A stretch of DNA of 26,105 nucleotides. Origin: an uncultured Candidatus Saccharibacteria bacterium. GTDB taxonomy: Bacteria; Patescibacteriota; Minisyncoccia; Minisyncoccales; CAYTKG01. Below, one piece after another: positions 2,333-23,276 of the stretch. The notes under the pieces are model-generated. The model was not told where the DNA came from. It ran no database searches and saw nothing but the letters and a program-made list of their open reading frames with translations. The position numbers and the translations under genes were made by a program. How positions within the stretch are numbered: the first letter of the stretch is position 1; each line of letters begins with the position of its first letter. Location: assembly GCA_964539465.1 (NCBI GenBank), contig CAZIIL010000001.1, forward strand, positions 1 to 26,105, read 5' to 3'.

Positions 2333-2333
2333 C

Positions 2334-2370
2334 GGGGAGGCGGGCTGGCTTTGCCAGCCCGCAATAGGAC
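2334..2370 (+). repeat. Mosaic element (single hairpin plus one 9-mer core)
   Basis: GGGAG-GCGGGCTGGC-TTT-GCCAGCCCGC-AATAGGAC. Confidence 0.85.
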
Positions 2371-2377
2371 AATCACT

Positions 2378-3244: not shown

Positions 3245-3246
3245 GT

Positions 3247-3843
3247 ATGCAAGAAAAACTTATAAAGAAAACAGCCGAGAGGTTGATGAATATTAAAGGA
3301 GAGGCAAGAGGCGTTATTTTAAAGACCGATGCTAAGTTTGTCGAAGGAAAAACTGGAGAAAAAGGATTAGAGCGATTGGAGCAGTGGCTCAAAGAGATGG
3401 GCTATCCAATAGAATATGAAAAGATTGAAACAATGGATTTTTACCCTATTGGTTTAAGAGTTATTTCCCTATTGGCAGTCCGAGAAGCTCTTGGTCTTTC
3501 TGATGATGGTGTCAGGAAGATGGGAAGGCATGCTCCAAAGATTTCTTTGGTGCTGAAACTATTTATGAAATTCTTTCTCTCCGTCGAAAAGACAATTGAG
3601 CAGGTTCCTGAGATGTGGAAGAAGCACTATACAATTGGAGAGTTAATTGCCGAAGCCGACGAAGAGAAGCGATATGCAAGGATAGAACTCAAGGGCCCAA
3701 TGATTCACCCCGTATTTTATCTTTATTTAGAGGGCTATTTCTCTATGGTTTTACAAATGGTTGTTAATAGCCCTGTTTTTTGTGAGGGAACGAAACGCGT
3801 CTCTGGGGAAGAGAGCTATTATGAATATCTGCTTAAATGGTGA
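3247..3843 (+). CDS. H-NOX/V4R-like ligand-binding protein
   Basis: KGEARGVILKTDAKFV...GLERLEQWL..MG..I...I..MDFYPIG and C-terminal HPVFYLYLEGYF...CEGTK...YEYLLKW resemble H-NOX/V4R (DUF2378-like) proteins. Starts 2 nt after the upstream stop. Confidence 0.6.
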   Translation: MQEKLIKKTAERLMNIKGEARGVILKTDAKFVEGKTGEKGLERLEQWLKEMGYPIEYEKIETMDFYPIGLRVISLLAVREALGLSDDGVRKMGRHAPKISLVLKLFMKFFLSVEKTIEQVPEMWKKHYTIGELIAEADEEKRYARIELKGPMIHPVFYLYLEGYFSMVLQMVVNSPVFCEGTKRVSGEESYYEYLLKW

Positions 3844-3911
3844 AAATCCACAGACATTTCTGTTGAGCCCGAGAAAATATTAAATGTTAGTCAACCAATA
3901 GATTAATCAAG

Positions 3912-5459: not shown

Positions 5460-5506
5460 GAAAAAACGCCAAGGTTTTAGGTTTTATTCTCTTGACTCAA
5501 TTATTT

Positions 5507-5515
5507 TGTTATAAT
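5507..5515 (+). promoter_or_regulatory. Extended -10 promoter candidate (TGnTATAAT) upstream of the first receiver
   Basis: TG-T-TATAAT followed by an AT-rich leader; no properly spaced -35. Confidence 0.4.
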
Positions 5516-5563
5516 GGAAAGGTATTAAGTATAAAGTATAAAATTAAATATTAAATATAAAGT

Positions 5564-5947
5564 ATGGTGGCAAGCATAAGAAAAAAGATTTTATTAATAG
5601 AAGACGAAGAAATAATGATTGATTTACTCCAAAGGAAGTTGGAGAAAGAGGGCTACGAAGTAAAACTTGCTCGGGATGGAGAAGAGGGTTTAGAAAAAAT
5701 AAGACAGGAAATGCCGGATTTAGTTCTCTTAGACATTGTTATGCCGAAAGTGGGAGGGCTTGAGGTTATGGAAGAGATTAGCAAAGACCAAGAATTGAAA
5801 AAGAAACCAGTGATTATTATTTCCAATTCAGGCCAGCCAGTGGAATTAGAAAGAGTTAAGGAATTAGGGGCTCGAGATTGGTTGATAAAAACTGAATTTG
5901 ACCCGCAGGAGGTATTAGATAAAGTTAAGCAGCAGATAGGAAAATAA
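5564..5947 (+). CDS. Single-domain response regulator (receiver only)
   Basis: ILLIEDEE, PDLVLLDIVMP (phospho-Asp), IIISNSG, LIKTEFDP. Confidence 0.93.
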   Translation: MVASIRKKILLIEDEEIMIDLLQRKLEKEGYEVKLARDGEEGLEKIRQEMPDLVLLDIVMPKVGGLEVMEEISKDQELKKKPVIIISNSGQPVELERVKELGARDWLIKTEFDPQEVLDKVKQQIGK

Positions 5948-6120
5948 ATCTCAAATCTTTCACCCACCCGAATTTTCGAAGAAAATTTGAGTGGACAAGA
6001 ATCTACATCTCAAAACCTTAAATCTTTTAGTTTTTCATCTATTAGTTTTGAGATTTGGCTGACCTGCCTCGCCGAAGACGACGAGTCGAGGCGGGAAGAC
6101 TCGTTCGGTGAGACGAGGCG
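5947..6120. repeat. Composite repeat region: heptamer inverted array, short palindrome and GC hairpin module
   Basis: TCTCAAAAC (6008-6016) pairs with GTTTTGAGA (6046-6054); AATTTTC-GAA-GAAAATT; CCTGCCTCG...CGAGGCGGG. Confidence 0.6.
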
Positions 6121-6146
6121 TTAAAATATATTAATTTTAACTGACA

Positions 6147-6524
6147 ATGGGAAACGCCACTAAAAAAATTCTTATTATCGAGGATGATAAATTTCTGAGA
6201 CAGTTGATTGTCCGCAAATTAACAGAGGAGGGCTATGATATCTCTGAGGCAGTGGATGGAGAGGAGGGAGTAAAGAAAGTGAAAGAGATAATGCCCGACC
6301 TGATTTTGTTAGACCTGATACTGCCCGGTATTGATGGTTTTGAGGTTTTATCTCGGATAAAGAGCGATGAGCCCACCAAGAAGATTCCGGTGATTATCCT
6401 TTCTAATCTTGGCCAGAAAGAAGATGTTGAAAGGGGTTTGAATCTGGGAGCGGTTGATTACTTGATAAAAGCGCATTTTACTCCAGGCGAGATTGTTGAG
6501 AAAATAAGAAGCGTTTTGGAGTAA
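6147..6524 (+). CDS. Single-domain response regulator (receiver only)
   Basis: ILIIEDDK, PDLILLDLILP, IILSNLG, LIKAHFTP. Confidence 0.93.
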   Translation: MGNATKKILIIEDDKFLRQLIVRKLTEEGYDISEAVDGEEGVKKVKEIMPDLILLDLILPGIDGFEVLSRIKSDEPTKKIPVIILSNLGQKEDVERGLNLGAVDYLIKAHFTPGEIVEKIRSVLE

Positions 6525-6526
6525 AA

Positions 6527-6680
6527 ATAGGACGCATATGCCGCAAGGCAAAGTGAAACTTTGCCTTGTGTTGCCAGCCCGCTCTTGGTAGCGGACTTTT
6601 CTTTTCTGTGGAAAACCTGTGTATAAAGTGTTCGATGCCGGGCATCGAACACTTTATAAAAACTGGCCACTGCCAGTTTT
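6527..6680 (+). repeat. Mosaic element with paired DnaA-box-like motifs and an 18-bp palindrome
   Basis: ATAGGAC, CGCAAGGCAAAGTGAAACTTTGCCTTGTG, GCCAGCCCGC, TGTGGAAAA-CC-TGTGTATAA, TATAAAGTGTTCGATGCC-G-GGCATCGAACACTTTATA, AAAACTGGC-CACT-GCCAGTTTT. Confidence 0.88.
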
Positions 6681-7991: not shown

Positions 7992-8021
7992 ATAGTAGTA
8001 TATTTTTGCAGTTTTTGTCAA
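7992..8021 (-). promoter_or_regulatory. Sigma70 promoter candidate for rpsT-holA
   Basis: Minus strand TTGACA-18 nt-TACTAT, with an overlapping TATAAT. Confidence 0.45.
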
Positions 8022-8032
8022 TTTTTTAGGCA

Positions 8033-8108
8033 AAATAGGACCGATAGGCCGCAAGGCAAAGTTTCATTTTGCCTTGCGGGAGAGCGAGCAGATAAAATCT
8101 GCTCGCTC
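8033..8108 (+). repeat. Mosaic element between the divergent rpsT and ruvA genes
   Basis: ATAGGACCG-ATAGG, CCGCAAGGCAAAGTTTCATTTTGCCTTGCGG, GAGCGAGCAGAT-AAA-ATCTGCTCGCTC. Confidence 0.9.
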
Positions 8109-8225
8109 GAAATGTACAACATGGAAAGTTGCGCAAGAGGAGGGCTATCTTCCAGATATAATGTATAAAAGGAAATCGAGAATATGATATAATGTTTTAA
8201 TACTTAATAACCCCAACACTAATCT

Positions 8226-8796: not shown

Positions 8797-10113
8797 ATGG
8801 AGAACAAAGTGCTTTGCTTTTTTATTAATCAATATCATTTTTTGTGGGCTCTATTGGGCGCTATATTCTTTGGTTTTTTATCTTGTCTTCACAGATGCTT
8901 TAATAAGCGGGCAAAAAAGATAAAGATTATCGGAGTTACTGGGACAAGCGGCAAATCCACCGTGATTGATTTGACAGGCAATATATTAGAGGAAGCGGGC
9001 TACAGGGTTGCAACTCTGTCTTCAATCAAATTCAAGATTGGCAACCAAGAGCAGAAGAACAAAATGAGAATGACAATGCCCGGTCGGGCTGTTATTCAGA
9101 GATTTCTTTGGCAGGCAATGAGGGCTGGTTGTGAATATGCCATATTAGAGATTACATCCGAGGGAATCTTGCAGCACAGGCATAGATTCATTGATTTTAA
9201 TGCAGCGGTTTTTACCAATCTAAGTCCTGAGCATATTGAACGCCATGGCTCATTTGAGAACTACAGAGAAGCAAAAGCAAGGTTTTTTAGAGCAGTGAAA
9301 AAGACACATATAATCAATTTAGACGATAAGAATGCTGATTATTTTTTGCAATTTTCAGCAGGCAGGAAATATCTTTATAATCTCAAATCTGAATCGTCAA
9401 TCGCCAATGGTGAAATTACTGCAGAGGGCGCGGCAGTTTCAAGTTCCGGAGTAAGTTTTTCTGTAAGAGGTGTTAAGTTTAATCTGAAATTATTAGGCAG
9501 ATTTAATATCTATAATGCTCTTGCTGCAATATGTGTCGGTCTTTCTCAAGGCATTGATTTGGAAACTTGTAAAAAAGGATTAGAAAAGATAAGGGGCGTC
9601 TCGGGGAGGATGGAGTTGATCATTTCTAAGCCCTTTAGGATTTTTGTTGATTACGCCATTACCCCCAACGCATTAGAGCAGGTTTATCAAACAATTAGAC
9701 AGAACTTTCTCTCTATGGATTCTCTAAATGCACAGGGCGGGAAAATGATTTGTGTTTTTGGTTCTTGCGGCGGGGGAAGGGATAAGTGGAAGAGGCCGGT
9801 TATAGGAAGATTGGCGGCTCAATATTGCGACAAGGTGATTCTTACTAACGAAGACCCTTATGGCGAAGACCCAGAGCAGATTTTATTGGAAATAAAATCT
9901 GGAATTCCGAACGAAAAAATGCCGATAGTAAGCTTGATTTTAGACAGGCGAGCAGCTATTAAGAAAGCGCTTGATTTAGCTCGAGAAAACGACACTGTTA
10001 TTATTACTGGCAAGGGTTGCGAGCCCTCTATGTGCTTGGCAAAAGGGAAACAGATAGCATGGGACGACAGGCAAGTGGTGAGAGAAGAATTTGAGAAATT
10101 GACTAAGAGATAA
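8797..10113 (+). CDS. murE: Mur ligase, MurE-like (UDP-N-acetylmuramyl-tripeptide synthetase family)
   Basis: IGVTGTSGKST, LEITSEG, FTNLSPEHIERHG, Y.EAK, GRFNIYNALAA, VSGRME, FGSCGGGRDKWKRP, TNEDPY, IITGKG. Confidence 0.8.
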   Translation: MENKVLCFFINQYHFLWALLGAIFFGFLSCLHRCFNKRAKKIKIIGVTGTSGKSTVIDLTGNILEEAGYRVATLSSIKFKIGNQEQKNKMRMTMPGRAVIQRFLWQAMRAGCEYAILEITSEGILQHRHRFIDFNAAVFTNLSPEHIERHGSFENYREAKARFFRAVKKTHIINLDDKNADYFLQFSAGRKYLYNLKSESSIANGEITAEGAAVSSSGVSFSVRGVKFNLKLLGRFNIYNALAAICVGLSQGIDLETCKKGLEKIRGVSGRMELIISKPFRIFVDYAITPNALEQVYQTIRQNFLSMDSLNAQGGKMICVFGSCGGGRDKWKRPVIGRLAAQYCDKVILTNEDPYGEDPEQILLEIKSGIPNEKMPIVSLILDRRAAIKKALDLARENDTVIITGKGCEPSMCLAKGKQIAWDDRQVVREEFEKLTKR

Positions 10114-10222
10114 TAGGACGAATAGGACCAATACGCTGCAAGGCAAAGTGAAACTTTGCCTTGCGGGGAGGCGGGCTGGCAAAGCCAGCCCGCCCAGCGA
10201 AGCTTCGCTCCGCAGAAAAAGC
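10112..10222 (+). repeat. Mosaic element between murE and archease
   Basis: ATAGGACGA-ATAGGACCA-ATACGC, GCAAGGCAAAGTGAAACTTTGCCTTGC, GCGGGCTGGC-AAA-GCCAGCCCGC, GCGAAGCTTCGCTCCGC. Confidence 0.92.
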
Positions 10223-10227
10223 GAAAT

Positions 10228-10632
10228 ATGAAGAATTTTGAGATTTTAGAACATAGCGCAGACCTGAAGATTAGGGCTTTTGGCAGCGATAAAGAGCAGC
10301 TTTTTTGGAATATGATGCGGGGAATGCAGGCGAGCTTGCGGTCTAACCCAAGCGAACAGAAAACAGAAACAAAAATAATGGTTCAATCCGAAGACCTGCT
10401 ATCTTTATTAGTTGATTTTTTATCAGAAATTAATTATCTAAACGAGATTAATCAAGAGGTTTATTACAGAATAAAGTTTGATAAATTCTCCGACACCGAG
10501 TTAGAAGCTGAACTTTCTGGCTACAAGGTCAAAAGGTTTGGGTTGCAAATCAAGGGAGTTACCTTTCATGATTTAGATGTGAGCCAGAAACAAGATGGGC
10601 AATGGGAGGCAACGGTTTTGTTTGATATATAA
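10228..10632 (+). CDS. Archease
   Basis: FEILEHSADL.IRAFG, LLVDFLSE, IKGVTFH, C-terminal LFDI; immediately upstream of rtcB. Start moved to ATG 10228. Confidence 0.92.
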   Translation: MKNFEILEHSADLKIRAFGSDKEQLFWNMMRGMQASLRSNPSEQKTETKIMVQSEDLLSLLVDFLSEINYLNEINQEVYYRIKFDKFSDTELEAELSGYKVKRFGLQIKGVTFHDLDVSQKQDGQWEATVLFDI

Positions 10633-10636
10633 AATT

Positions 10637-13588
10637 ATGGGGAAAAAGATATTTAAAAAAATTAATGATTATCTGTGGGAGATTCCGGCAAGCCACCGTA
10701 GGTTTATGAGGGTTCCAGCGCGGATTTATGCTTCTGAGAAAATATTAGAAGATGTGGAACCCGATGCCTTGGAGCAATTAATCAATGTTGCGTCTTTGCC
10801 TGGAATTGTCAAATATTCTTTTGCTATGCCAGACATTCATACCGGCTATGGTTTTGTTATTGGCGGCGTGGCGGCTACAAAACTTCCAGAAGGCGTGATT
10901 TCTCCCGGCGGTATCGGTTTTGACCAGAATTGCACCGTTCCCAACACAAGAGTTTTATCAAGCATGGGTTTTTACTTACCCATTAAGGACCTAGAAAAAA
11001 ACAAAACGAAAGTAAGATTTGTTGATATTGATAAGAATAATTTAGGAACTTCAGAGGTTATCCGTTTCATAAAGCAGTATAATAATCCAAGTATCTATAA
11101 GATAACTACAGAATCAGGGGAAGAATTAGAAGTTACAAAGGATCATCCCATTCAAACGGAGAGTGGCATGAAGGAGGTTAGAAATGTTAAAAATGGGGAG
11201 AAAGTATTAATTTATCCCTTCAAAGGAGTGGAATTCCAATATCCTGTTTCAGATGTTATTTTGAATGAGGAAAAATTTAGAAAAATTCTGAAAAAATTCA
11301 ATAAAACTGAGAAAGGAAATGCTATTCTGCAAATTTTAAATTATATTAAATTCCGAGGGTTTTTGCCCTTGAGATATAATTCTCCTTCCTTACCTCATAT
11401 TTTAAAAATAATGGGGTTTATTTTTGGCGATGGGGCTGTGACAATTAATAAAGACGGAAAGGGAACCGTACAGTTTTATGGGAAAAAGGAGGACTTGGAA
11501 CAAATCCGTGAAGATGTAAAAAGAATTGGCCTTGTGCCCTCGAGAATATATTCCCGAGAAAGAAACCATTCTATTACTAATTTTTATGGCAAGCAGGAAT
11601 TTACGACAACCGAGCAACACTTTAAGGTAACTACCACTGCCTTCGCACTTTACTTGGTGGCTCTCGGGACACCCTATGGCCTTAAAGCGCATCAGGAATA
11701 TAGAGTTCCAGAATGGATTTTCAATTGTCCATTATGGCAAAAGAGATTGTTTTTAGCATCTTTTTTCGGAGCTGAACTTTCAAAGCCTTCAACCTCTAAT
11801 AATAAGTATAATCTTCATGCACTACAGTTTAGTGTAAGCAAGAAAGTAGAGTTGAAAGAAAATGCAAAAATGTTTTTAGAAGATATTAAAAGACTTTTAA
11901 GCGGTTTTGAGATCGGAAGTTCGCCTATTCAAGAAGTCCCTGGTTATCAATATAATGGTAAACTCGGGAAGACAACTGCTTTTAGGCTACATATTAATGG
12001 AAATAGTGAAAATCTTATAAGATTTTTTGAGTCAATTAGCTATGAATATAATCAAGAAAGACAAAGAGAGGCTTGTTTAGCGGCCAGTTACTTAAAAAGG
12101 AAATTGAGAATAGTAGAAATTAGGACTAAGACAAGGGACAGGGCATTTGAGCTTTATAAACAGGGAGAAAAAATAAAAAATATCATTAAAAGCCTTTCCA
12201 GCAGATATGCTCCTCCTCAATTTATTAAACACTCGTTTTTCAAGAGTAAAAGAGGAAAACCAAGAATCTCTTTTGATTTTCTATCCTTTGAAGAATACAA
12301 GAAGAAATATGCTTTTGGGGAGAGTGGTTTGGTTTGGGAGAAAATTGAAAAGATAGAAGAGATTCCATACTCAGGTTCTGTTTTTGACATTACTATCAAT
12401 GATATAAATCATAACTTTATTGCTAATAACTTTGTTGTTTCAAATTGCGGGATTCGTGTTCTGAAAACAGAATACAAGAAAGAGGAAATTATGCCTTTTA
12501 TTGATAGATTGGCAACAGAAATGCAGAGACGGGTTCCGTCTGGATTAGGCAGAGGACATAAAACAAAGTTAAGCGTAGCGCAGATAGACAAAGTATTGAA
12601 AAATGGTGTTTCCTATCTTGTGAGCCAAGGATATGGCGACGAGCAAGATATAGAAAATTGCGAGGCAAGAGGCAAGATGGAGCAGGCAGATGTAGCTACG
12701 GTTTCAGAAAGAGCTAAAAATAGAGGCAGGAACCAATTGGGTACATTGGGCAGCGGCAACCATTTTCTTGAAGTCCAAAAAGTTGAGGAAATTTTTGACG
12801 AACAAACAGCCAAAGTTTTTGGGCTTTTTGAGAATCAAGTAGTAGTAATGATTCATACGGGTTCCAGAGGGTTAGGGCATCAAAATTGTACTGATTATTT
12901 GAGGATTGTAATGAAAGCAATGCCGAAGTATGGGATAAGCCTGCCGGATAAGGAATTGGCGTGTGTTCCATTTAATTCTTCTGAGGGGCAGAGATTTTTT
13001 GGGGCTATGTCGGCTGCTGCTAACTTTGCGTGGGGAAATCGACATATGATAAGCCATTATGTCAGGAGAGCGTGGCAGGATGTTTTGGGCAAGGAAGCAA
13101 AGCTTGACTTGCTTTATGATGTTGCCCATAACATTGCTAAGGTTGAAGAGCATATAATTGATGGCAAGAAAATGAAATTATGTGTTCATCGCAAAGGCGC
13201 GACAAGGGCTTTCCCGCCAGGGCATTTGGAGATTCCAGCGCAATATAGGACTGTTGGCCAGCCGGTTTTAATTCCTGGTTCTATGGGAACTGCTTCTTAT
13301 ATTTTAGCCGGAACAGAACAAGGCAGCCCATCTTTTTTCTCAACCTGCCACGGCGCTGGCAGAAGGATGTCGCGAACCAGAGCAAGAAAAACTATTTCAG
13401 GGGAACAAGTTATTGAGGAGTTGAAAAGAAAAGGAATCTTGGTAAGATGTTATTCAGTAAGGGGTATTGCCGAAGAAGCGCCTCTTTCTTATAAAGATGT
13501 TGATAATGTGGTTGAGGTTGTGCATCAGGCAGGCCTGGCAAAAAAAGTAGCGAGGTTGGTGCCCTTGGCTGTTATTAAAGGAGAATAA
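10637..13588 (+). CDS. rtcB: RNA-splicing/repair ligase RtcB, intein-containing (478-aa extein)
   Basis: MPDIHTGYG, GGIGFDQN|CGIR, GSGNHFLE, HTGSRG, HNIAK, HRKGATRA, STCHGAGR. Confidence 0.96.
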   Translation: MGKKIFKKINDYLWEIPASHRRFMRVPARIYASEKILEDVEPDALEQLINVASLPGIVKYSFAMPDIHTGYGFVIGGVAATKLPEGVISPGGIGFDQNCTVPNTRVLSSMGFYLPIKDLEKNKTKVRFVDIDKNNLGTSEVIRFIKQYNNPSIYKITTESGEELEVTKDHPIQTESGMKEVRNVKNGEKVLIYPFKGVEFQYPVSDVILNEEKFRKILKKFNKTEKGNAILQILNYIKFRGFLPLRYNSPSLPHILKIMGFIFGDGAVTINKDGKGTVQFYGKKEDLEQIREDVKRIGLVPSRIYSRERNHSITNFYGKQEFTTTEQHFKVTTTAFALYLVALGTPYGLKAHQEYRVPEWIFNCPLWQKRLFLASFFGAELSKPSTSNNKYNLHALQFSVSKKVELKENAKMFLEDIKRLLSGFEIGSSPIQEVPGYQYNGKLGKTTAFRLHINGNSENLIRFFESISYEYNQERQREACLAASYLKRKLRIVEIRTKTRDRAFELYKQGEKIKNIIKSLSSRYAPPQFIKHSFFKSKRGKPRISFDFLSFEEYKKKYAFGESGLVWEKIEKIEEIPYSGSVFDITINDINHNFIANNFVVSNCGIRVLKTEYKKEEIMPFIDRLATEMQRRVPSGLGRGHKTKLSVAQIDKVLKNGVSYLVSQGYGDEQDIENCEARGKMEQADVATVSERAKNRGRNQLGTLGSGNHFLEVQKVEEIFDEQTAKVFGLFENQVVVMIHTGSRGLGHQNCTDYLRIVMKAMPKYGISLPDKELACVPFNSSEGQRFFGAMSAAANFAWGNRHMISHYVRRAWQDVLGKEAKLDLLYDVAHNIAKVEEHIIDGKKMKLCVHRKGATRAFPPGHLEIPAQYRTVGQPVLIPGSMGTASYILAGTEQGSPSFFSTCHGAGRRMSRTRARKTISGEQVIEELKRKGILVRCYSVRGIAEEAPLSYKDVDNVVEVVHQAGLAKKVARLVPLAVIKGE
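10931..12445 (+). mobile_element. Intein with LAGLIDADG homing endonuclease (505 aa)
   Basis: N-terminal Cys (CTVPNTRV), block B (TKDHPI), block C IMGFIFGDG, block E FLASFFGAEL, C-terminus FDITI..NHNFIANNFVVSN followed by Cys+1. Confidence 0.93.
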
Positions 13589-13801: not shown

Positions 13802-13948
13802 ATGAAGAAAAAACTTCCCAGATCCATACGCAAATATATCAGAAAGGAAAAAGCCCGGATTCGTCGGGAGGTTTTAGATTTAGAGGAGAGAAAGACATTA
13901 ATAGGCCAACTTTATAATAAATTTCTAAAACAAAATAAAGAGAAATGA
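13802..13948 (+). CDS. Small basic hypothetical protein, 48 aa (absent from the ORF track)
   Basis: MKKKLPRSIRKYIRKEKARIRREVLDLEERKTLIGQLYNKFLKQNKEK; its TGA overlaps the next ATG (ATGA). Confidence 0.65.
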   Translation: MKKKLPRSIRKYIRKEKARIRREVLDLEERKTLIGQLYNKFLKQNKEK

Positions 13949-14892
13949 AGATTCAAGAAATATACAATTTAGCTCTTCAAATGGGCAAGGAGAGCGATTT
14001 CCGAGGAGCCGAGAGTATAGAAAAAATGCTAAAGAGACGAAGAGAATTGTTCGATAAACTGCCAGAAGAAAAGAAAAAGGATTTTGATAGAGATGATCTG
14101 ATTAACCCTTTCCCCGACTCAAGGGTTCTCAATGTGTCAGAAGATAAAGAAATAAAAAAGATTATGTTCGGCATTGACATTGCTCCAGCCGAACTCTTAA
14201 TGGCAAAGGAGATTGAAGGCATTGACCTAGTTATATCTCATCATCCTTTGGGAAAAGGATTAGCCAAATTATGGAGTGTGATGCAGCTTCAATGCGATGT
14301 CTTAGCTTATTATGGCGTGCCCATAAACATTGCCGAGGGTTTGATGACAGAAAGGATATCAGAGGTGGCTCGCGGGATTAATGCAATTAACCACCAAAGG
14401 ACAGTAATGGCTGCCGAACTATTGGGCTTTAATCTAATGTGCCTGCATACTATTTGCGATAATTTAGCCGCCAGATTCTTAAGAGAAAATATTGAGTCGG
14501 CAAAACCAGAAAGAGTTGGGGACATTATTGATTTACTCAAAAAACTCCCTGAATATCAAAAAGCGGTAAGCATTGGGGCGGGGCCAAAAATATTTGTCGG
14601 CAGTAGAGAGAACAGATGCGGCAAGATTGCCCTGACAGAGATTACTGGCGGCACCGAGGGCTCATCTAAGATTTATCAGAAAATAGCTCAAGCAGGTATT
14701 GGTACGGTGATAGGAATGCATATGAGCAAGGAGCATTATGAAGAAGCCAAGACAGCTTTCATTAATGTAGTGATTGCTGGGCATATGTCTTCTGATTCCT
14801 TGGGAATAAATATATTCTTAGATGAGTTGGAGAAAAGAGGAATTGAAATTGTCCCCTGTTCTGGTTTAACTCGTGTGTCGCGGGTGAAGTAG
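13945..14892 (+). CDS. NIF3/YqfO-like dinuclear metal-centre protein
   Basis: KKIMFGID, DLVISHHP, MCLHTICDN, IGTVIGMH, IAGHMSSDSLG. Confidence 0.8.
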   Translation: MKIQEIYNLALQMGKESDFRGAESIEKMLKRRRELFDKLPEEKKKDFDRDDLINPFPDSRVLNVSEDKEIKKIMFGIDIAPAELLMAKEIEGIDLVISHHPLGKGLAKLWSVMQLQCDVLAYYGVPINIAEGLMTERISEVARGINAINHQRTVMAAELLGFNLMCLHTICDNLAARFLRENIESAKPERVGDIIDLLKKLPEYQKAVSIGAGPKIFVGSRENRCGKIALTEITGGTEGSSKIYQKIAQAGIGTVIGMHMSKEHYEEAKTAFINVVIAGHMSSDSLGINIFLDELEKRGIEIVPCSGLTRVSRVK

Positions 14893-14897
14893 AACGT

Positions 14898-15072
14898 ATA
14901 GGACCAATAGGACCAATACGCCCGCCGAAGAGGCGGGGGAAGAGCAAGCAGATTTTATCTGCTTGCTCTGCGGAGCTCCGCTCCGCAGGGAAAAGAGCAA
15001 AGCTTCGCTTTGCAGGAAAAAACTGTGGAAAATCTGTGCATAAAGTGTTCGATGCCGGGCATTGAACACTTT
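14898..15072 (+). repeat. Mosaic element with paired DnaA-box-like motifs and a long palindrome
   Basis: ATAGGACCA x2-ATACGC, CCGCCGAAGAGGCGG, AGAGCAAGCAGAT-TTT-ATCTGCTTGCTCT, GCGGAGCTCCGCTCCGC, GCAAAGCTTCGCTTTGC, TGTGGAAAA-TC-TGTGCATAA, AAAGTGTTCGATGCC-G-GGCATTGAACACTTT. Confidence 0.92.
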
Positions 15073-15083
15073 TGAGAAGCTAT

Positions 15084-16700
15084 TTAGAGGTTTTTTACCA
15101 TATAGGTGTTTTTGAGCCGATAGCCCAATTTGCGATAATAATCTCTGACTCCGATACCAGCAATCACGGATATTTTTTTCAAGCCGAACTCATCCTTTGC
15201 AATACTTTCTGCGCTTTTGATTAATTGCTTTCCCAAGCCCTTATGCTGTGGTGAAATCATGGAGTCCTGTCCTCTGTGGTTTGTTTTTAAGGAAAGTTGT
15301 GGCCCAAAGGTTTGGATTTCACGAATAATAGCAGTACGAGAAGTGTTCTCGCATTGAATTCGCAATCTGAGTAAACTGAAAAGCTTTGTTCTCTCTTTGT
15401 TTTCAAAACTAAGAAAAATCTCTTTGCCGCCAGATGCCTCATAATCTTCGCGAAAAAGATTAATTTTTTCTTGGGGGCAATATCTTGCTCTTACCTCGCG
15501 GCAGCGGATGCAATGACATCTCTTGTTCTGCTTTTTTAATTCCAGCGCTACAACCTCTCTTAGATTTGAAGCCCTACAGCCGGCAATGATACTATATGAA
15601 GGAATATCACGGAATATTCTTGCAACCCTAACCCAATAAGGCAGATGTGTTTTGATTGTAATCAATAGTTTAACCAGTTGTTTGCAAGAGTATGGTTTAT
15701 ATCCACCCCCTTTCCACACATTCAAGAGTTTTGTTTTCGGGCAGACAACACAGGGGTAAATTTTGAGCCAATCAGGCCTGAATCTTGCGTCGTTGAAAAG
15801 AATTTGAAAGCATTCTAAATCCCTGCTTAGATTAGAGCCGGGCAGATTGGGCATTATTTGGTAAAGAACCTTAAATCCAGCATTCTTTAGTATTTGGGTG
15901 GCTTGGCTAATCTTTTGGACAGCCATTCCTGTGCGGCATTTTTTCAGAATATCGTCAAAGACGGTTTGAACTCCTAACTCTACCAGTGTTACGCCCAATT
16001 TTCTCAACCGTAAGACCTCTTTTCTATCAATAAAATCAGGTCTAGTTTCAATAGATAAGCCGACAATTCTATTCCTGGCTGTTTCATTTTTCTTTTGAAC
16101 TTTTCCCAGCAGAACAAGTCCCTTTTTATTAGGGACACGTTTCGTTTTAACATGCCCTATTTTAAACTCATTAGCCGCTTGGAAGCAGCGCTTAATAAAC
16201 CATGTCTGATATTGCTTTGGATAAAAGGACCATGTTCCGCCAACAATTCTTAATTCGATTTTATCAATAGGATGACCCTGATAATTCAATGACTCTAATC
16301 TCTTCTGAACCTGAAGATAGGGATCGAAGCCGAGGGCCTTTGCCCTGTCAGCAGCTGGTTCGCCGCTGACATAACTCTTAGGAAATCCTTTTTCGGTTGG
16401 ACAGTAGATACATTGGCCAGGGCAGGGGTATGGCTTGGTTAAGACAGAGATATTGACAATGCCAGACAAGGAGCGGATGGGCCGGGTTATCAAGAGATTC
16501 TCAATAATTTTTGACTTCCTGATTGTTTTATTTTTTACTAATCTATGATAGATTTTTAGCAAGTCGACATTAGACGGAAAAGATGTCCCAAATTCTTTTG
16601 CAAATCTGCGCTTTGTCTTTTCTAAATTCTCCCGACTACCGATGTTGTGGTCAGCGAGATACTTAACGAGTAGCTTCTTTTGCTTTTTATGCTCTATCAT
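15084..16700 (-). CDS. elp3: Elp3-family tRNA uridine(34) acetyltransferase (radical SAM + GNAT)
   Basis: RSLSGI..ISVLTKPYPCPGQCIYCP, PKSYVSGEPA, GGTW, ETRPD, VELGVQ, MPNLPG, LKIYP, CIRCRE, QHKGLG, VIAGIGVRDYYRKLGY. Confidence 0.93.
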   Translation of the reverse strand: MIEHKKQKKLLVKYLADHNIGSRENLEKTKRRFAKEFGTSFPSNVDLLKIYHRLVKNKTIRKSKIIENLLITRPIRSLSGIVNISVLTKPYPCPGQCIYCPTEKGFPKSYVSGEPAADRAKALGFDPYLQVQKRLESLNYQGHPIDKIELRIVGGTWSFYPKQYQTWFIKRCFQAANEFKIGHVKTKRVPNKKGLVLLGKVQKKNETARNRIVGLSIETRPDFIDRKEVLRLRKLGVTLVELGVQTVFDDILKKCRTGMAVQKISQATQILKNAGFKVLYQIMPNLPGSNLSRDLECFQILFNDARFRPDWLKIYPCVVCPKTKLLNVWKGGGYKPYSCKQLVKLLITIKTHLPYWVRVARIFRDIPSYSIIAGCRASNLREVVALELKKQNKRCHCIRCREVRARYCPQEKINLFREDYEASGGKEIFLSFENKERTKLFSLLRLRIQCENTSRTAIIREIQTFGPQLSLKTNHRGQDSMISPQHKGLGKQLIKSAESIAKDEFGLKKISVIAGIGVRDYYRKLGYRLKNTYMVKNL

Positions 16701-16704
16701 TTAA

Positions 16705-17427
16705 ATGGATAAGGATTATGCTCAATATCTGGTTTCTAAGACCTGCCTTGATTATAACTTGATTGCTTCCGAGTTTTCAAACAAAAGAAGTTTTCTTTGG
16801 AAAGAACTGAATTATTTTAGACAATTCTGTTCGGATGGCGACCGTATTTTAGATATTGGTTGTGGGAATGGAAGATTATTAGAGCTTTTTGACGGATTAA
16901 AGGTAGATTATATTGGGCTTGATAACTCAGAAAAATTAATAGCCATAGCAAGAAAAATCAGAGACAGTAGGGGGGAAAACAGCTCTGTGGAGTTCGTTGT
17001 TGGGGACGGCTTGAATCTGCTGTTTGATGCTTGCCATTTTGACAAGGTTTTCTCAATAGCCGCCTTTCATCACATACCTTCAAGAAATTTTAGGTTAAGA
17101 TTTTTAAAGGAAGCAAAAAGGGTGCTCAAACCTCAAGGTTTACTTGTGTTAACGGTCTGGAATCTTTGGCAAATAGCATTTTTGAAATATCACTTTAAAC
17201 ATCTGCTTCTAAAGATTTTTTGTAAATCAAGATTGGACTTTAAAGATATTCTTTATCCCTGGAAAGACCAAACAGGAAGCCCTTTTATCCAAAGATATCT
17301 GCATTGTTTTACAAAAAGAGAGTTGGAAAGATTGGTTAAAGAGGCTGGTTTTCAAATTAAGGAAGTAGGGTTCTTGGGGGAGAACAAGAGAAATATTTAT
17401 TTAGTTGCAGCAGCCCCCACAGCTTAA
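16705..17427 (+). CDS. Class I SAM-dependent methyltransferase, Trm9/ALKBH8-like
   Basis: YNLIA.EFS, ILDIGCGNGR, GLDNSEKL, SIAAFHHIPS...RL..LKE.KRVLKP.G.L.LTVW, RYLHCF...EL. Confidence 0.75.
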   Translation: MDKDYAQYLVSKTCLDYNLIASEFSNKRSFLWKELNYFRQFCSDGDRILDIGCGNGRLLELFDGLKVDYIGLDNSEKLIAIARKIRDSRGENSSVEFVVGDGLNLLFDACHFDKVFSIAAFHHIPSRNFRLRFLKEAKRVLKPQGLLVLTVWNLWQIAFLKYHFKHLLLKIFCKSRLDFKDILYPWKDQTGSPFIQRYLHCFTKRELERLVKEAGFQIKEVGFLGENKRNIYLVAAAPTA

Positions 17428-17447: not shown

Positions 17448-17519
17448 GTCCCTGTAGTCCAATGGATAGAACATCGGCCTCCGGAGCCGAAGATGCGCGT
17501 TCGAATCGCGCCAGGGACA
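17448..17519 (+). tRNA. tRNA-Arg (anticodon CCG), CCA not encoded
   Basis: Acceptor GTCCCTG/CAGGGAC, anticodon arm TCGGC-CTCCGGA-GCCGA, T-arm GCGCG-TTCGAAT-CGCGC. Confidence 0.96.
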
Positions 17520-17520
17520 C

Positions 17521-17668
17521 ATAGGACACATAGGAAAAAATAGGACGAATAAGAAAAATAGGACATATAGGACCGATAGGACCAATACGCCCGCCGAAGA
17601 AGCGGGGAAGAGCCAGCCCGCGCAGCGGAACTTTACTCCGCTTTGCTCTGGGGAGCGTCGGGCAACGC
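17521..17668 (+). repeat. Mosaic element with the longest 9-mer array (7 units), abutting the tRNA 3' end
   Basis: ATAGGACAC, ATAGGAAAA(A), ATAGGACGA, ATAAGAAAA, ATAGGACAT, ATAGGACCG, ATAGGACCA, then ATACGC, CCGCCGAAGAAGCGG, GCCAGCCCGC, GCGGAACTTTACTCCGC. Confidence 0.92.
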
Positions 17669-17670
17669 AT

Positions 17671-17698
17671 TTGACAAATCCTTTTTTAGCAGTAAAAT
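17671..17698 (+). promoter_or_regulatory. Sigma70 promoter
   Basis: TTGACA-16 nt-TAAAAT; predicted start near G17705. Confidence 0.65.
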
Positions 17699-17704
17699 AG
17701 TTTT

Positions 17705-17837
17705 GAGGGAGTGAGGGGGCAGTGTCCTCCAAAGGCAATAATGCTGACAAGTAAATATTGCCGGGTGCGCGTATAATTGGGATATTGCTTATTCCAAGGC
17801 CCAAGGCCCGGCGCTGTTTACCAAGCTAAACTCCCTT
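17705..17837 (+). ncRNA. Candidate structured small non-coding RNA, family unassigned
   Basis: GC-rich ORF-less stretch between a consensus promoter and a strong terminator; 5' and 3' ends pair; internal hairpins present. Confidence 0.5.
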
Positions 17838-17873
17838 CCCCAGCACATAAGACCTATGTGCTGGGTTGTTTTT
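17838..17873 (+). terminator. Intrinsic terminator
   Basis: CCCAGCACATA-AGACC-TATGTGCTGGG followed by TTGTTTTT. Confidence 0.8.
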
Positions 17874-17923
17874 GACAATGTTATTGGGTTATAATGAAAA
17901 AAGATTAACAAAATTTCTAAATA

Positions 17924-18532
17924 ATGAAAAGCAATAAATTTAAATATAAGATAGCTGTGTCTGGGGCAGAGGCGACAGGCCATTGCAGTAAAGATGCCGC
18001 TGAAAGAGCAAGGGAGATTGGGAGGCAGATTGTCAAACATAAAGGAGTGCTTCTTACTGGCGCTTGCTGGGGCATGCCATACGAAGCCGCGACTGGGACC
18101 GAAGAGGCAGGGGGAATTTCTATAGGCGTGTCGCCAGCCATTTCGGAGAAAGACCATTATGAACAGTTTAAAATGCCCACCGATAACTTTGACCTGATAT
18201 TCTATACTGGCTATGGTTTTTCAGCCAGAAATGTTTGGCTGATGCGGATGGCTGACGCTGTTATCTTTATCTGCGGCCGAATGGGCACATTAAACGAATT
18301 TACTATCTGCTTTGAGGATGATAGGTTAATAGGCATTTTAGAAGGAAGCGGCGGCACAGCTGATATTATAAGGAACATAGTCAGCAATACCCATAAGGGT
18401 CCTGGGAAGATTATTTATGAGAAAGACCCCAAAAAATTAGTAGAAAAGATTTGTCATGCCATTGACAAAGAAAAGAAAGAAATGGAGGTCTATTTCGAGG
18501 TTCAAAAATTCATCAAGGGTCGCAAGTTTTAA
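17924..18532 (+). CDS. LOG/SLOG-family Rossmann-fold protein (TIGR00725-like)
   Basis: IAVSGA, AREIGRQI, LLTGACWGMP, SIGVSP, RNVWLMRMADAVIFICGRMGTLNEF. Confidence 0.8.
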   Translation: MKSNKFKYKIAVSGAEATGHCSKDAAERAREIGRQIVKHKGVLLTGACWGMPYEAATGTEEAGGISIGVSPAISEKDHYEQFKMPTDNFDLIFYTGYGFSARNVWLMRMADAVIFICGRMGTLNEFTICFEDDRLIGILEGSGGTADIIRNIVSNTHKGPGKIIYEKDPKKLVEKICHAIDKEKKEMEVYFEVQKFIKGRKF

Positions 18533-18563
18533 TAAAAAGGTCGTAAATTTTAGGTTAAATTTT

Positions 18564-18839
18564 ATGTCTCAAGAAAACAATAAACTTGAAGAGTGGAAAT
18601 TAATCGGCAAGGTAACCCATTACTTTGATAAAGCAGGAGTAGCTGTGCTTGAACTTTCTTCTATTCTAAAACAAGGAGAGACCATTAGGATTGTGGGAGG
18701 GATAGATACTGATTTCGAGCAAGTAGTTAAGTCCATGGAAATAGAACATGAAAAGATAGAAACAGCGAAGAAAGGAGATATTATCGGCTTAAAAGCAAAA
18801 GAGAAGGTGAGAGAGGGCTACAAGGTCTATAAGAAGTAG
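18564..18839 (+). CDS. Small beta-barrel protein, translation elongation factor domain II-like
   Basis: LIGKVTHYFDKAGVAVLEL..LKQGETI.I.G..TDFEQ.V.SMEIEH..IE.AKKGD.IGLK; start at ATG 18564. Confidence 0.75.
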   Translation: MSQENNKLEEWKLIGKVTHYFDKAGVAVLELSSILKQGETIRIVGGIDTDFEQVVKSMEIEHEKIETAKKGDIIGLKAKEKVREGYKVYKK

Positions 18840-20449: not shown

Positions 20450-21922
20450 ATGACAAAGAGATTCTATGTCACCACAGCAATAGATTATGTTAATGCTCCT
20501 CCCCATATAGGCCATGCTCTAGAGAAGATACAAGCGGATGTATTGGCAAGGTATCATCGTTTTTTGAAAGAGGATGTTTTTTTTCTAACCGGTACGGATG
20601 ATAATGCTCAAAAGAATGTGCAGGCGGCTGATAAACAAGGACTTCCCATACAGGAATTCACCAATAGAAACGCAGCGGTTTTTAAAGAAATGGGAAAACT
20701 CTTAAATGTATCTAACAACGACTTTATCCGAACCAGCAGCAAGTCCGAACATTGGCCAGGGGTAGTTAAACTCTGGCAGGAATGTCAAAAAGCAGGCGAT
20801 ATTTATCAAAAAGAATATTCGGGACTTTATTGCTTGGGGTGCGAGGCATTTATAACGGAAAAGGACCTGGAAAACGGGCTTTGCCCAGAACACCTGAAAG
20901 CGCCGGAGCGGGTTTCTGAGAAGAACTATTTTTTTCGTCTTTCAAGATATCAAGACAAATTAAAGAGATTAATTAAAAGCGATAAATTAAGGATTGTTCC
21001 AGAGAAAAGAAAGAATGAAACCCTAAAGTTTATTGAGTCGGGCTTGGAGGATTTCAGCGTTTCGCGGCCAGCCGAACGGATGAAAAACTGGGGCATTCCT
21101 GTCCCCGGCGATAATAGCCAGATTATCTATGTCTGGTATGACGCCCTAAGCAACTATATTACTGGCTTGGGCTATGGAAGAAAGGACAATAAATTATTTA
21201 AAAGATTCTGGCCAGCCGATGTCCATGTTATAGGCAAGGGAATTCTGCGTTTCCATGCGGTTTTTTGGCCTGCTATGATACTTTCTACTGGATTAGAATT
21301 GCCTCGGACAATATTTGTTCATGACTATATCACTGTTGGTGGGCAAAAGATGTCAAAGACAATAGGAAACATTATTAACCCTATTGAGTTGGTAGAGAAA
21401 TATGGGACAGACCCTGTCAGATATTTTTTCCTAAGGGAGTTTTCTCCCTTCCAAGATGGAGATTTTTCCTACAAGCGATTGGAAGATAGATATAATTCTG
21501 ATTTAGCAAAAGGGTTAGGAAATTTGACGGCCAGGATTCTAACAATGGCTCAAAAAACATTTACGGAAAGTGTTAAGTATAACCCCGATTCTCAATTTAA
21601 GAGTTTATTTGAAAAAACTACAAAACAGATAGGACAGCATATGCAGAACTTTCGTTTTAATGATGCTGTAGCCGCTGTCTGGCAGTTGATAGGATTCTGC
21701 GATAGATATATTGAGAAAGAGCGACCATGGGAAGAAGGAAAAGAACAGGCGCTCAATAATCTGCTTGCCGCTTTATCCCACATTGCTTTAAGTCTGCAGC
21801 CGTTTTTGCCAGGTACTTCAGAAAAGATTTTTAAACAATTGGGGATAAAGAATAAAAGCAAACCATTATTATTCAGGGTTGGAAAAGGTGAGTCACTATT
21901 TCCCCGCTTGGAAAAGGAATAG
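20450..21922 (+). CDS. metG: Methionine--tRNA ligase (short form)
   Basis: FYVTTAIDYVNAPPHIGH, TGTDDNAQK, YCLGCE, CPEH, YVWYDAL, GKGILRFH, KMSKT. Confidence 0.97.
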   Translation: MTKRFYVTTAIDYVNAPPHIGHALEKIQADVLARYHRFLKEDVFFLTGTDDNAQKNVQAADKQGLPIQEFTNRNAAVFKEMGKLLNVSNNDFIRTSSKSEHWPGVVKLWQECQKAGDIYQKEYSGLYCLGCEAFITEKDLENGLCPEHLKAPERVSEKNYFFRLSRYQDKLKRLIKSDKLRIVPEKRKNETLKFIESGLEDFSVSRPAERMKNWGIPVPGDNSQIIYVWYDALSNYITGLGYGRKDNKLFKRFWPADVHVIGKGILRFHAVFWPAMILSTGLELPRTIFVHDYITVGGQKMSKTIGNIINPIELVEKYGTDPVRYFFLREFSPFQDGDFSYKRLEDRYNSDLAKGLGNLTARILTMAQKTFTESVKYNPDSQFKSLFEKTTKQIGQHMQNFRFNDAVAAVWQLIGFCDRYIEKERPWEEGKEQALNNLLAALSHIALSLQPFLPGTSEKIFKQLGIKNKSKPLLFRVGKGESLFPRLEKE

Positions 21923-21987
21923 GATACATAGGACCAAATAGGATTAATACGCCGCAAGGCAAAGTGAAACTTTGCCTTGCGGCGTAT
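21918..21987 (+). repeat. Mosaic element with a perfect 19-bp hairpin
   Basis: 9-mer-like units followed by ATACGCCGCAAGGCAAAGT-GAA-ACTTTGCCTTGCGGCGTAT. Confidence 0.92.
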
Positions 21988-22023
21988 GTAATTGTTCAAT
22001 CTTCCAGATTAAACAATTGGAGA

Positions 22024-22075
22024 TATTGCTTTTTCGGCAGATTTGTGTTATAAGGGCACAATGTTGCTCTTTACT
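22024..22075 (+). promoter_or_regulatory. Duplicated promoter/leader, copy 1
   Basis: TTGCTT-17 nt-TATAAG; 47/52 identical to 22595-22646; followed by AGGAGGTGA. Confidence 0.75.
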
Positions 22076-22090
22076 TTAGGAGGTGAAGAC

Positions 22091-22510
22091 ATGAAGAGGT
22101 TTTTCTTGCTCGAAGTTTCTTTACTGATTCTTGCTTGTGGACTCTTCGCCGCTGGCGCGGTGGCTGAGCCCGCTCTTCCTGCTCCTGTTTCCGCTCCTGT
22201 CCTCGCTCTTCCCCCATCTCCTGTTCTTCCTCTCCCCGTTCCTTTTACCTCTCCTCTTTCTACTCCTACTTCTACCCAAGAGCTCCGCATCAAGTATCTT
22301 CAATACGATGAACAGGGCATCGCCATCCTGGAAGTGACAGTCGATGGTGGAGAGATAAAGACAGTAGGGCTTCTTGAGGGTCGTCCCGTCCGTATCCAAA
22401 TCTGGAACGCGGACGGAGAGGTCATCAAGGACATCTACTTTCTCCTATTAGAGGATGGGAACATCTACTATAAGGAGAAAAAGGAGGACGAATGGACAAG
22501 TTTGGCTTAG
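22091..22510 (+). CDS. Secreted hypothetical protein with Pro-rich linker
   Basis: SD AGGAGGTGA then ATG 22091; signal-peptide-like MKRFFLLEVSLLILACGLFAAGAVA; Pro/Ser/Thr linker; acidic beta-rich C-domain. Confidence 0.75.
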   Translation: MKRFFLLEVSLLILACGLFAAGAVAEPALPAPVSAPVLALPPSPVLPLPVPFTSPLSTPTSTQELRIKYLQYDEQGIAILEVTVDGGEIKTVGLLEGRPVRIQIWNADGEVIKDIYFLLLEDGNIYYKEKKEDEWTSLA

Positions 22511-22519
22511 GTCTGGCTT

Positions 22520-22544
22520 AGGGGACGCTTCGGCGTCCCTTTTG
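22520..22544 (+). terminator. Intrinsic terminator
   Basis: AGGGGACGC-TTCG-GCGTCCCTT followed by T-run. Confidence 0.8.
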
Positions 22545-22594
22545 TATTTGGGTGTTGTGTAACGAGGTCAGACCTTGTTACAGTGCCTTGAGGG

Positions 22595-22646
22595 TATTGC
22601 TTTTTCGGCAGATTTGTGGTATAAGAATACAATATTGCTCTTTACT
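22595..22646 (+). promoter_or_regulatory. Duplicated promoter/leader, copy 2
   Basis: TTGCTT-17 nt-TATAAG with extended TG; 47/52 identical to copy 1. Confidence 0.75.
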
Positions 22647-22670
22647 ATAGTTCACCTTAGGAGGTGAGAA

Positions 22671-23276
22671 GTGAAAAAAAGAATGTTCTTCTTGGTAGGA
22701 CTCTTGCTGGTTGGTGGCGGGCTTTTAGCGCTTGGATTCGCCGCCGAGCCATCCCATGCTCTCGCTTCTATGTCCATTGGGGACACAGAGATAGAAGAGC
22801 TCTATTACCAGTTCCGGGCGGACTGGCAAGACCAGCCAGACGGGGAAGAAGATGTCTGGCAGGTCTCTGCAGAAATGCGGGGGGATTGCGAGGACTTTGT
22901 TCTTACTTTCTCCACCCAACTGCCTTCTTATTATGAATCGTTTCTCGTTCGCATGGAAGTAGAAACGATTCATCAATTCCTTGGTATTCAGTTGGGCAGG
23001 AAAAGTAGCGGCCACATTGCTGCTATCCTGTTTAACACCCAAACAGGAGAGATTTGGGTGTTAGACAATGATTGGATAGTGGGTCTCCGTGGCCCCTTCC
23101 CTCCAGGCCTGATTGGCTCCTCTTCCCCTGCTGTCATGGCTCTGAGACAGGGACAAGAAGAAGGACAAACAGGGTTTCTTTCTCGGAAGAGAGAAGTAAC
23201 AAGGATACAAATTTCCCTTTTTACACTGGAAAGGGAAGTTTTCCGGGAAGACAACAGTGTGCTTTGGCAAAAATGA
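22671..23276 (+). CDS. Exported transglutaminase-like cysteine protease (BTLCP/LapG-like)
   Basis: Signal peptide, then GDCEDF, GHIAAIL and WVLDN: Cys-His-Asp order and motifs as in BTLCP. Confidence 0.65.
   Translation: MKKRMFFLVGLLLVGGGLLALGFAAEPSHALASMSIGDTEIEELYYQFRADWQDQPDGEEDVWQVSAEMRGDCEDFVLTFSTQLPSYYESFLVRMEVETIHQFLGIQLGRKSSGHIAAILFNTQTGEIWVLDNDWIVGLRGPFPPGLIGSSSPAVMALRQGQEEGQTGFLSRKREVTRIQISLFTLEREVFREDNSVLWQK

Follow-up and report, generated by a model that had tools for sequence, protein, structure and literature searches.

The 26,105-nucleotide window analysed here, from an uncultured Candidatus Saccharibacteria bacterium, carries an Elp3 gene facing a gene for a Trm9-family methyltransferase, and we propose that the two probably form a two-gene module for the modification of tRNA wobble uridines in a bacterium of the candidate phyla radiation (CPR), leading from 5-carboxymethyluridine at position 34 (cm5U34) to 5-methoxycarbonylmethyluridine (mcm5U34). 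An earlier note on this DNA had suggested such a route from Elp3 to a Trm9-like enzyme, and synteny, grouping with Trm9 and active-site residues all agreed with it. Both open reading frames (ORFs) were recovered exactly where that note had placed them, filling positions 15084-17427 completely in divergent orientation, and the methyltransferase translation contains the motifs quoted there, SIAAFHHIPSRNFRLRFLKEAKRVLKPQGLLVLTVW and RYLHCFTKREL. On the basis of homology and of the conserved pairing described below, Elp3 would act alone, like the archaeal enzyme, and carboxymethylate C5 of U34 by radical S-adenosylmethionine (SAM) chemistry with acetyl-CoA, and the methyltransferase would then use SAM to methyl-esterify the carboxylate of cm5U34. 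With a thiolase acting as well, the product would be mcm5s2U34, the 2-thiolated form. A very compact control region, bidirectional and shared by both genes, would couple their expression.

Judged by its sequence, the Elp3 protein is solidly assigned as a full-length, motif-complete member of its family. It scored 546.3 bits against TIGR01211 (cut-off 350), covering model positions 4-522 of 522, and Pfam returned Radical_SAM and Radical_SAM_C together with weak matches to ELP3_N and GNAT. The top PDB match was Methanocaldococcus infernus Elp3 (MinElp3; 6ia8, 1e-124, window residues 38-538), while Dehalococcoides Elp3 gave 1e-109 (5l7j, window residues 75-538) and the eukaryotic Elp3 structures in the PDB gave 1e-88 to 1e-94. 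An alignment of 31 Elp3 homologues showed that the iron-sulphur cysteines C93/C97/C100 (CxxxCxxC) and the acetyl-CoA motif QH.G.G (Q485/H486/G490) are invariant or nearly so, and that the triad C395/C397/C400, the Zn cysteines characteristic of prokaryotic Elp3 (PMC6367351), is near-invariant. A long N-terminus is used for tRNA binding by archaeal Elp3 and is missing from the enzyme of Dehalococcoides mccartyi, DmcElp3 (PMC6367351). As the alignment with 6ia8 begins at residue 38, the window protein possesses this archaeal-type N-terminus.

Sequence comparisons support the assignment of the methyltransferase to the Trm9 family rather than to the generic methyltransferases. When the single sequence was compared, its residues 26-227 matched Yarrowia lipolytica Trm9 (5cm2_Z), and the match took in the C-terminal 'PW ... 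RY.H' segment, which lies outside the common Rossmann core; PH0226 scored slightly higher, but aligned over the core only. A profile built from an alignment of 49 homologues (A1) and run against the whole PDB returned 5cm2_Z first (E 1.3e-24, 90 bits, profile positions 25-220), with a lead of only about 10 bits over the runner-up (79.8 bits). Comparison of A1 with 25 fungal Trm9 sequences by hhalign gave a probability of 100 and an E value of 2.2e-41, and the 202 aligned columns reach from the N-terminal helix as far as the last strand; the identity to fungal Trm9 is about 26-28%. In a bootstrapped neighbour-joining tree, the CPR proteins, four archaeal homologues and fungal Trm9 formed one clade in 98 of 100 replicates, which left out PH0226, 3sm3, LahSB, AtmM and generic bacterial methyltransferases. 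Tree and profile comparisons thus agree in placing the protein with Trm9 and not with the small-molecule methyltransferases, the grouping on which the earlier proposal depended. The AlphaFold2 model of the methyltransferase (pLDDT 95.8) also had 5cm2_Z as its top Foldseek match, with a TM score of 0.85 on the target. The 60 top-ranking PDB matches of the A1 profile did not include CmoM, a class I SAM methyltransferase of analogous chemistry, which turns a carboxylate on a U34 side chain into its methyl ester; no direct comparison with CmoM was made. The PDB entry 6f5z, considered as Haloferax Trm9, was dropped, its Foldseek description being Hvo_0019-Trm112.

The catalytic requirements of Trm9 are known from yeast, where R29, D72, H116, W145, W168, R241, Y243 and N271 are needed while H24, K31, R122, E148 and D270 are dispensable (PMC4678810). 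Seven of the eight essential residues are present in the window protein (R28, D73, H123, W152, W186, R197 and N230), with H115/H116 of yeast Trm9 corresponding to H122/H123. Residues were then counted on a joint alignment of 49 CPR, 20 Chloroflexota-type and 4 archaeal proteins. R29, D72, H116, W145, W168 and R241 are kept in 48-49 of the 49 CPR proteins, in all 20 Chloroflexota-type proteins and in the archaea, and N271 in 47 of the 49 CPR proteins and in the archaea. The five positions dispensable in yeast are kept neither in the CPR nor in the Chloroflexota-type proteins. Conservation therefore tracks the functional map of Trm9, which would be hard to explain unless the pocket, built for a uridine with a carboxylate side chain, were the same as that of Trm9 or very similar to it.

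The association of the two genes was surveyed from both sides. A methyltransferase-seeded survey with one genome per GTDB species yielded 80 loci, and counts were made on the 57 of them that matched over the full length and had 2 kb or more of upstream sequence. Elp3 stood directly head to head with the methyltransferase in 42 of these, a class comprising 41 loci with an extrapolated gap below 400 nt and L015, whose starts overlap by 2 nt. Elp3 lay within 10 kb in 50 of the 57 loci and was missing in the other 7; four generic, core-only methyltransferase matches (L063, L070, L079 and L080) had no Elp3. An Elp3-seeded survey of metagenomes also yielded 80 loci, and among the 66 with at least 900 nt upstream the methyltransferase was head to head with Elp3 in 52 (79%; 46 scored as divergent and 6 in the same arrangement with one over-extended query ORF), the remaining 14 showing no methyltransferase within 4 kb. 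The head-to-head pairing persists down to about 26% methyltransferase identity, and clustering of all neighbouring ORFs returned Elp3 as the sole widely conserved neighbour of the methyltransferase. The adjacency is far beyond chance, and the synteny that the earlier note had proposed to check proved to be strongly conserved.

The carriers comprise many CPR lineages, Anaerolineales/Chloroflexota, Fermentibacteria and a few others. The pair is thus not confined to CPR, the group to which the earlier note had assigned the route. One archaeal locus was seen (L042), with co-directional Elp3 and methyltransferase genes. A motif search for MnmG and MnmE in 1.74 Mb of related loci found neither, a result that with 10-20 kb per genome is almost uninformative on their absence; the same search returned an MnmA-like P-loop motif three times, twice with a clear MnmA-type N-terminus (L043 and L136).

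Eukaryotic and Haloferax Trm9 need the partner protein Trm112, the Haloferax requirement holding in vivo (PMC6144793). In the eukaryotic enzyme Trm112 binds through a beta3 zipper and covers a hydrophobic patch (V59, F78, V102, A110, P112 and F116 in Y. lipolytica); in the CPR family the positions of V59, F78 and V102 are occupied by K/R, D/E and Q, respectively, while F116 and D117 are kept. A regular-expression search for the Trm112/YcaR motif found none in the window or in the 80 methyltransferase-seeded loci (L001-L080), which is a weak test; a partner may be encoded elsewhere in the genomes. Since the patch has become charged and no Trm112-like gene lies nearby, the methyltransferase probably works without Trm112, which would make the pair the minimal two-gene route of the earlier note.

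Archaeal Elp3 alone forms cm5U34 in vitro (PMC7663514), and Trm9 turns cm5U into mcm5U in eukaryotes and in Haloferax (PMC7663514, PMC6144793), where the dependence of mcm5U on Trm9-Trm112 was shown in 2018 (PMC6144793). Clustering of the Elp3 and Trm9 genes was reported in Sulfolobus in 2008 (PMC2584109). As this clustering was already known in archaea, the window pair is to be regarded as a bacterial member of a known pathway; what is new is its occurrence in bacteria, with Trm112 independence as a possible variant feature. For the same reason archaeal-like describes the route better than eukaryote-like, the term used in the earlier note (PMC2584109, PMC6144793). Like the archaeal systems (Haloferax volcanii HVO_2888 and HVO_1032-Trm112; the Sulfolobus solfataricus cluster), the window has a stand-alone Elp3 without Elp1,2,4-6, with the prokaryote-type Zn triad and the long N-terminus, an adjoining Trm9-family gene and a predicted mcm5U34 product. 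Its Elp3 scores best against MinElp3, and the CPR methyltransferases share a clade with archaeal and eukaryotic Trm9. The differences lie in the bacterial host, in the head-to-head genes with nearly no spacer (co-directional in the archaeal L042), in Y243, kept in archaea and lost in bacteria, and in the hydrophobic Trm112 patch, which the CPR protein lacks while Haloferax Trm9 depends on Trm112.

With the eukaryotic Elongator (Elp1-6) and Trm9-Trm112 or ALKBH8-TRMT112, the window pair shares the enzyme families, the predicted steps from cm5U to mcm5U and the seven of eight essential Trm9 residues; in contrast, the window neighbourhood contains neither accessory Elongator subunits nor Trm112, the methyltransferase has no AlkB/RRM fusion and the genes are paired. 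DmcElp3 is likewise bacterial and stand-alone with the same domain architecture, but lacks roughly the first 70 residues of the window Elp3, and no methyltransferase partner is discussed for it in the literature found. The MnmE/MnmG(-MnmC) and CmoA/CmoB/CmoM systems also modify C5 of U34, although with unrelated enzymes and side chains, namely 5-carboxymethylaminomethyl and 5-methylaminomethyl (cmnm5/mnm5) or 5-oxyacetic acid and its methyl ester (cmo5/mcmo5). A 2020 review restricted bacterial Elp3 to one specific clade, Dehalococcoides, and considered the bacterial modification to be without evidence (PMC7663514), whereas our surveys found Elp3 widely in CPR and Anaerolineales. Literature of 2026 places Elp3 in 'numerous bacteria', with uridines of the 5-carboxymethyl-derived class (xcm5U) not demonstrated there. 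No relevant paper turned up when the literature was searched for a Trm9 from CPR or other bacteria, or for mcm5U in bacteria.

Several observations weigh against the conversion of cm5U34 into mcm5U34 by this pair. Neither cm5U nor mcm5U is supported by biochemical evidence in any bacterium, and DmcElp3 is only weakly active in vitro (PMC7663514); the 98/100 clade comes from a tree built on distances over 215 columns, in which the outgroup sequences were partial, and the Trm112 independence is read from few interface columns and from the weak negative motif search. Moreover, the yeast-essential Y243 is L199 in the window protein, I, L, F or V in CPR and Val or others in the Chloroflexota-type proteins, the Tyr being kept in archaea, and N271 is Gly or Ser in the Chloroflexota branch. 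With Y243 replaced in all bacterial members and N271 in one branch, the binding pocket differs from that of yeast Trm9. These replacements would suit a Trm9-family enzyme that is tied to Elp3 and whose product is not plain mcm5U34, because it acts on another Elp3-derived side chain, needs prior thiolation or ribose methylation, or modifies another carboxylate on the same tRNAs. The Chloroflexota branch joins the Trm9 clade at 13/100 only. In addition, Haloferax without Trm9 diverts cm5U to unknown products (PMC6144793), so that the side-chain chemistry after Elp3 is incompletely mapped even in archaea. We nevertheless consider such a product unlikely, as the residues proposed to bind the cm5U carboxylate or to stack on U34 (R29, H115/H116, W145 and R241) are invariant and the canonical reaction is the simplest reading of a pairing with a cm5U-forming enzyme. 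The fact that xcm5U has never been detected in bacteria, together with the weak tRNA binding and low activity of DmcElp3 (PMC7663514), might also be taken to mean that Elp3 and its partner act away from U34, either on another RNA or, through an acetyltransferase role, on a protein that the methyltransferase would then modify. This appears quite improbable, since Elp3 from bacteria, archaea and eukaryotes hydrolyses acetyl-CoA only in response to tRNA (PMC6367351), the window Elp3 keeps the long N-terminus that gives tRNA binding in the archaeal enzyme, and the methyltransferase keeps the uridine- and carboxylate-recognising residues of Trm9.

The family assignment of the methyltransferase can be questioned as well. 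Pfam and NCBIfam returned only generic families, all below cut-offs (CpaM, UbiE, ArsM and others) and none of them Trm9-specific, and public annotation labels some homologues UbiE or simply class I methyltransferase. Likewise, 3sm3 (function unknown) and many other methyltransferases nearly equal Trm9 in Foldseek, so that the fold alone does not discriminate. All of this would be expected of an unrelated small-molecule or lipid methyltransferase of the UbiE, ArsM or CFA-synthase kind standing beside Elp3 by chance. Such a coincidence is scarcely credible in view of the pairing, which was seen across phyla in 42 of 57 independent loci in one survey and in 52 of 66 in the other, the absence of Elp3 from the core-only matches, and the full-length Trm9 profile homology with its Trm9-specific residues outside the SAM core and the well-supported clade. 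The automatic KEGG Orthology assignment of IMG, for its part, already labels some homologues TRM9. A Trm9-type enzyme acting on cm5U34 thus remains our preferred interpretation of the pair.

The start codons of the two window genes are only 4 nt apart, so that each promoter must lie inside the 5' coding region of the other gene; overlapping promoters of this kind would tie the expression of Elp3 and the methyltransferase together. Among 38 loci with a defined methyltransferase start, the start-to-start spacing is mostly between -2 and about 30 nt, and the start codons overlap as CATG in eight (L002, L004-L006, L009, L013, L015 and L024). In the Chloroflexota loci (L049-L076), just 6-8 nt separate the end of a TATAAT box from the ATG of the methyltransferase, a distance which suggests a leaderless methyltransferase mRNA. 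A consensus scan of the window returned one site directed toward Elp3 (Table 1); as promoter-like sites in this region are not above the shuffled expectation, it is a candidate only.

On a wider scale, many uncultured bacteria (CPR/Patescibacteria, Anaerolineales and others) may make mcm5U34-type uridines by a stand-alone Elp3 and a Trm112-independent Trm9 under ultra-compact, bidirectional and partly leaderless control, the pair having been acquired from archaea or shared with them and substituting, in these small genomes, for the usual bacterial MnmE/MnmG route. We put this extended proposal forward tentatively, as a possibility rather than an expectation. If true, it would give bacteria their first xcm5U pathway and would include a Trm9 able to act alone, also the first of its kind. 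The xcm5U branch is treated as an archaeal and eukaryotic trait, and the conserved bacterial Elp3-Trm9 pair predicts mcm5U in bacteria. As eukaryotic Trm9 is insoluble unless Trm112 is present, the pair would offer structural and mechanistic studies small, soluble forms of both enzymes that probably need no partner. The pair is also relevant to how CPR bacteria, with their reduced genomes, secure the decoding of split codon boxes, and to the exchange of genes between archaea and CPR; hundreds of genes labelled 'class I SAM-dependent methyltransferase' or 'UbiE' could be re-annotated.

Table 1. Features of the Elp3-methyltransferase locus (coordinates refer to the window).
Feature	Coordinates	Strand	Remarks
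Elp3, radical-SAM + GNAT/KAT tRNA U34 carboxymethylating enzyme (predicted)	15084..16700	-	538 aa, long archaeal-type N-terminus
Trm9-family class I SAM methyltransferase; predicted tRNA (cm5U34) carboxyl O-methyltransferase	16705..17427	+	240 aa
Spacer TTAA between the divergent Elp3 and methyltransferase start codons	16701..16704	.	4 nt; direct sequence reading
Candidate promoter TTGAAA-18-TATAAT (11/12) toward Elp3	16751..16780	-	consensus scan; inside methyltransferase codons ~16-26
Repeat, probable terminator, directly 3' of the Elp3 stop	15023..15081	-	inverted repeat I3 15042-15072
tRNA-Arg(CCG)	17448..17520	+	ARAGORN + Rfam (65.9 bits); 20 nt past the methyltransferase stop

The neighbours of the pair in the window are bacterial (RuvA, Mur ligase, DNA polymerase III delta subunit, a Pol I-type 5'-3' exonuclease, MetRS and LeuRS) and its closest homologues come from Nealsonbacteria, Portnoybacteria, Paceibacterota and other Patescibacteria, which makes the CPR label given by the earlier note reasonable. 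The tRNA-Arg(CCG) gene also lies downstream of the methyltransferase in the closest relatives (L002-L005, L007, L008 and L015), and the two may possibly be co-transcribed; having C34, this tRNA is no substrate for Elp3 or Trm9. A tRNA-Ser(CGA) occupies the downstream position in L006, and a tRNA-Ser/Ser/Arg cluster is found in the Chloroflexota loci L076/L077.

The repeat behind Elp3 is one of two 59-nt copies, 88% identical (6606-6664 and 15023-15081), that lie directly 3' of the only two minus-strand genes of the window, those of the DNA polymerase III delta subunit and Elp3. Their palindrome AAAGTGTTCGATGCC/GGCATCGAACACTTT is perfect in the former copy and has 14 of 15 pairs in the latter, and the repeat is probably a terminator for the minus-strand genes. 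The terminator scan gave a second terminator-like hairpin at 15013-14997. A direct repeat of 52-63 nt flanks the Elp3-methyltransferase-tRNA unit (14887-14949 and 17556-17617) and was considered as the ends of a mobile element; this was rejected, as both copies are members of an intergenic repeat family that is scattered over the window in about 10 copies. The family consists of modular repeats on the plus strand (455-573, 1354-1467, 2333-2362, 6502-6567, 8010-8128, 10097-10228, 14887-15000, 17531-17650 and 21913-22009), made up of tandem ATAGGAC motifs and CAATACGC followed by interchangeable GC-rich hairpins such as GCAAGGCAAAGTGAAACTTTGCCTTGC, CCCGCCGAAGAGGCGGGG and GGCGGGCTGGCAAAGCCAGCCCGCC. 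The copy at 1354-1467 is located inside the 5'-3' exonuclease ORF (631-1692).

Beyond the tRNA gene, positions 17671-17880 (+) comprise a promoter-like TTGACA-16-TAAAAT (11/12) and then about 170 nt with an unusually strong fold (-69.9 kcal/mol, z -3.9, 0/200 shuffles as good), which ends in a strong terminator hairpin with a T-run (17839-17865) just upstream of the SLOG-cluster-4 gene at 17924. Rfam returned no match for this structured stretch, which is a candidate riboswitch/attenuator or small RNA. The SLOG-cluster-4 (LDcluster4) protein and a small beta-barrel protein with weak matches to EF-Tu domain 2 and to the U32 C-terminal domain are encoded within 17924-18839 (+); they recur in 8 and 10 related loci, respectively, mostly 3' of the methyltransferase. 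On the other side, a NIF3/DUF34 gene (13945-14892, +) is convergent with Elp3 beyond its 3' end and lies near the pair in 6 related loci.

An archease gene followed by an RtcB RNA ligase gene (10156-13588, +) lies two genes (about 1.5 kb) from the Elp3-Trm9 pair, with NIF3 between, and represents an archaeal/eukaryotic-style tRNA ligase system. The RtcB of 997 aa includes an intein of about 490 aa that carries a LAGLIDADG homing-endonuclease domain. A signalling cluster at 1769-6524 (+) encodes a PocR sensory-domain protein, a PilS-like protein with six transmembrane segments, a PAS histidine kinase and two stand-alone receiver domains. Finally, the kilobase at 22017-23276 (+) has a GC content of 48%, compared with about 40%, and contains two small ORFs whose N-termini resemble signal peptides. 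In front of either ORF stands one of two copies of a 63-nt repeat, which are 86% identical (22017-22079 and 22588-22650); one of the two ORFs gave a weak match to a transglutaminase-like cysteine protease (BTLCP).

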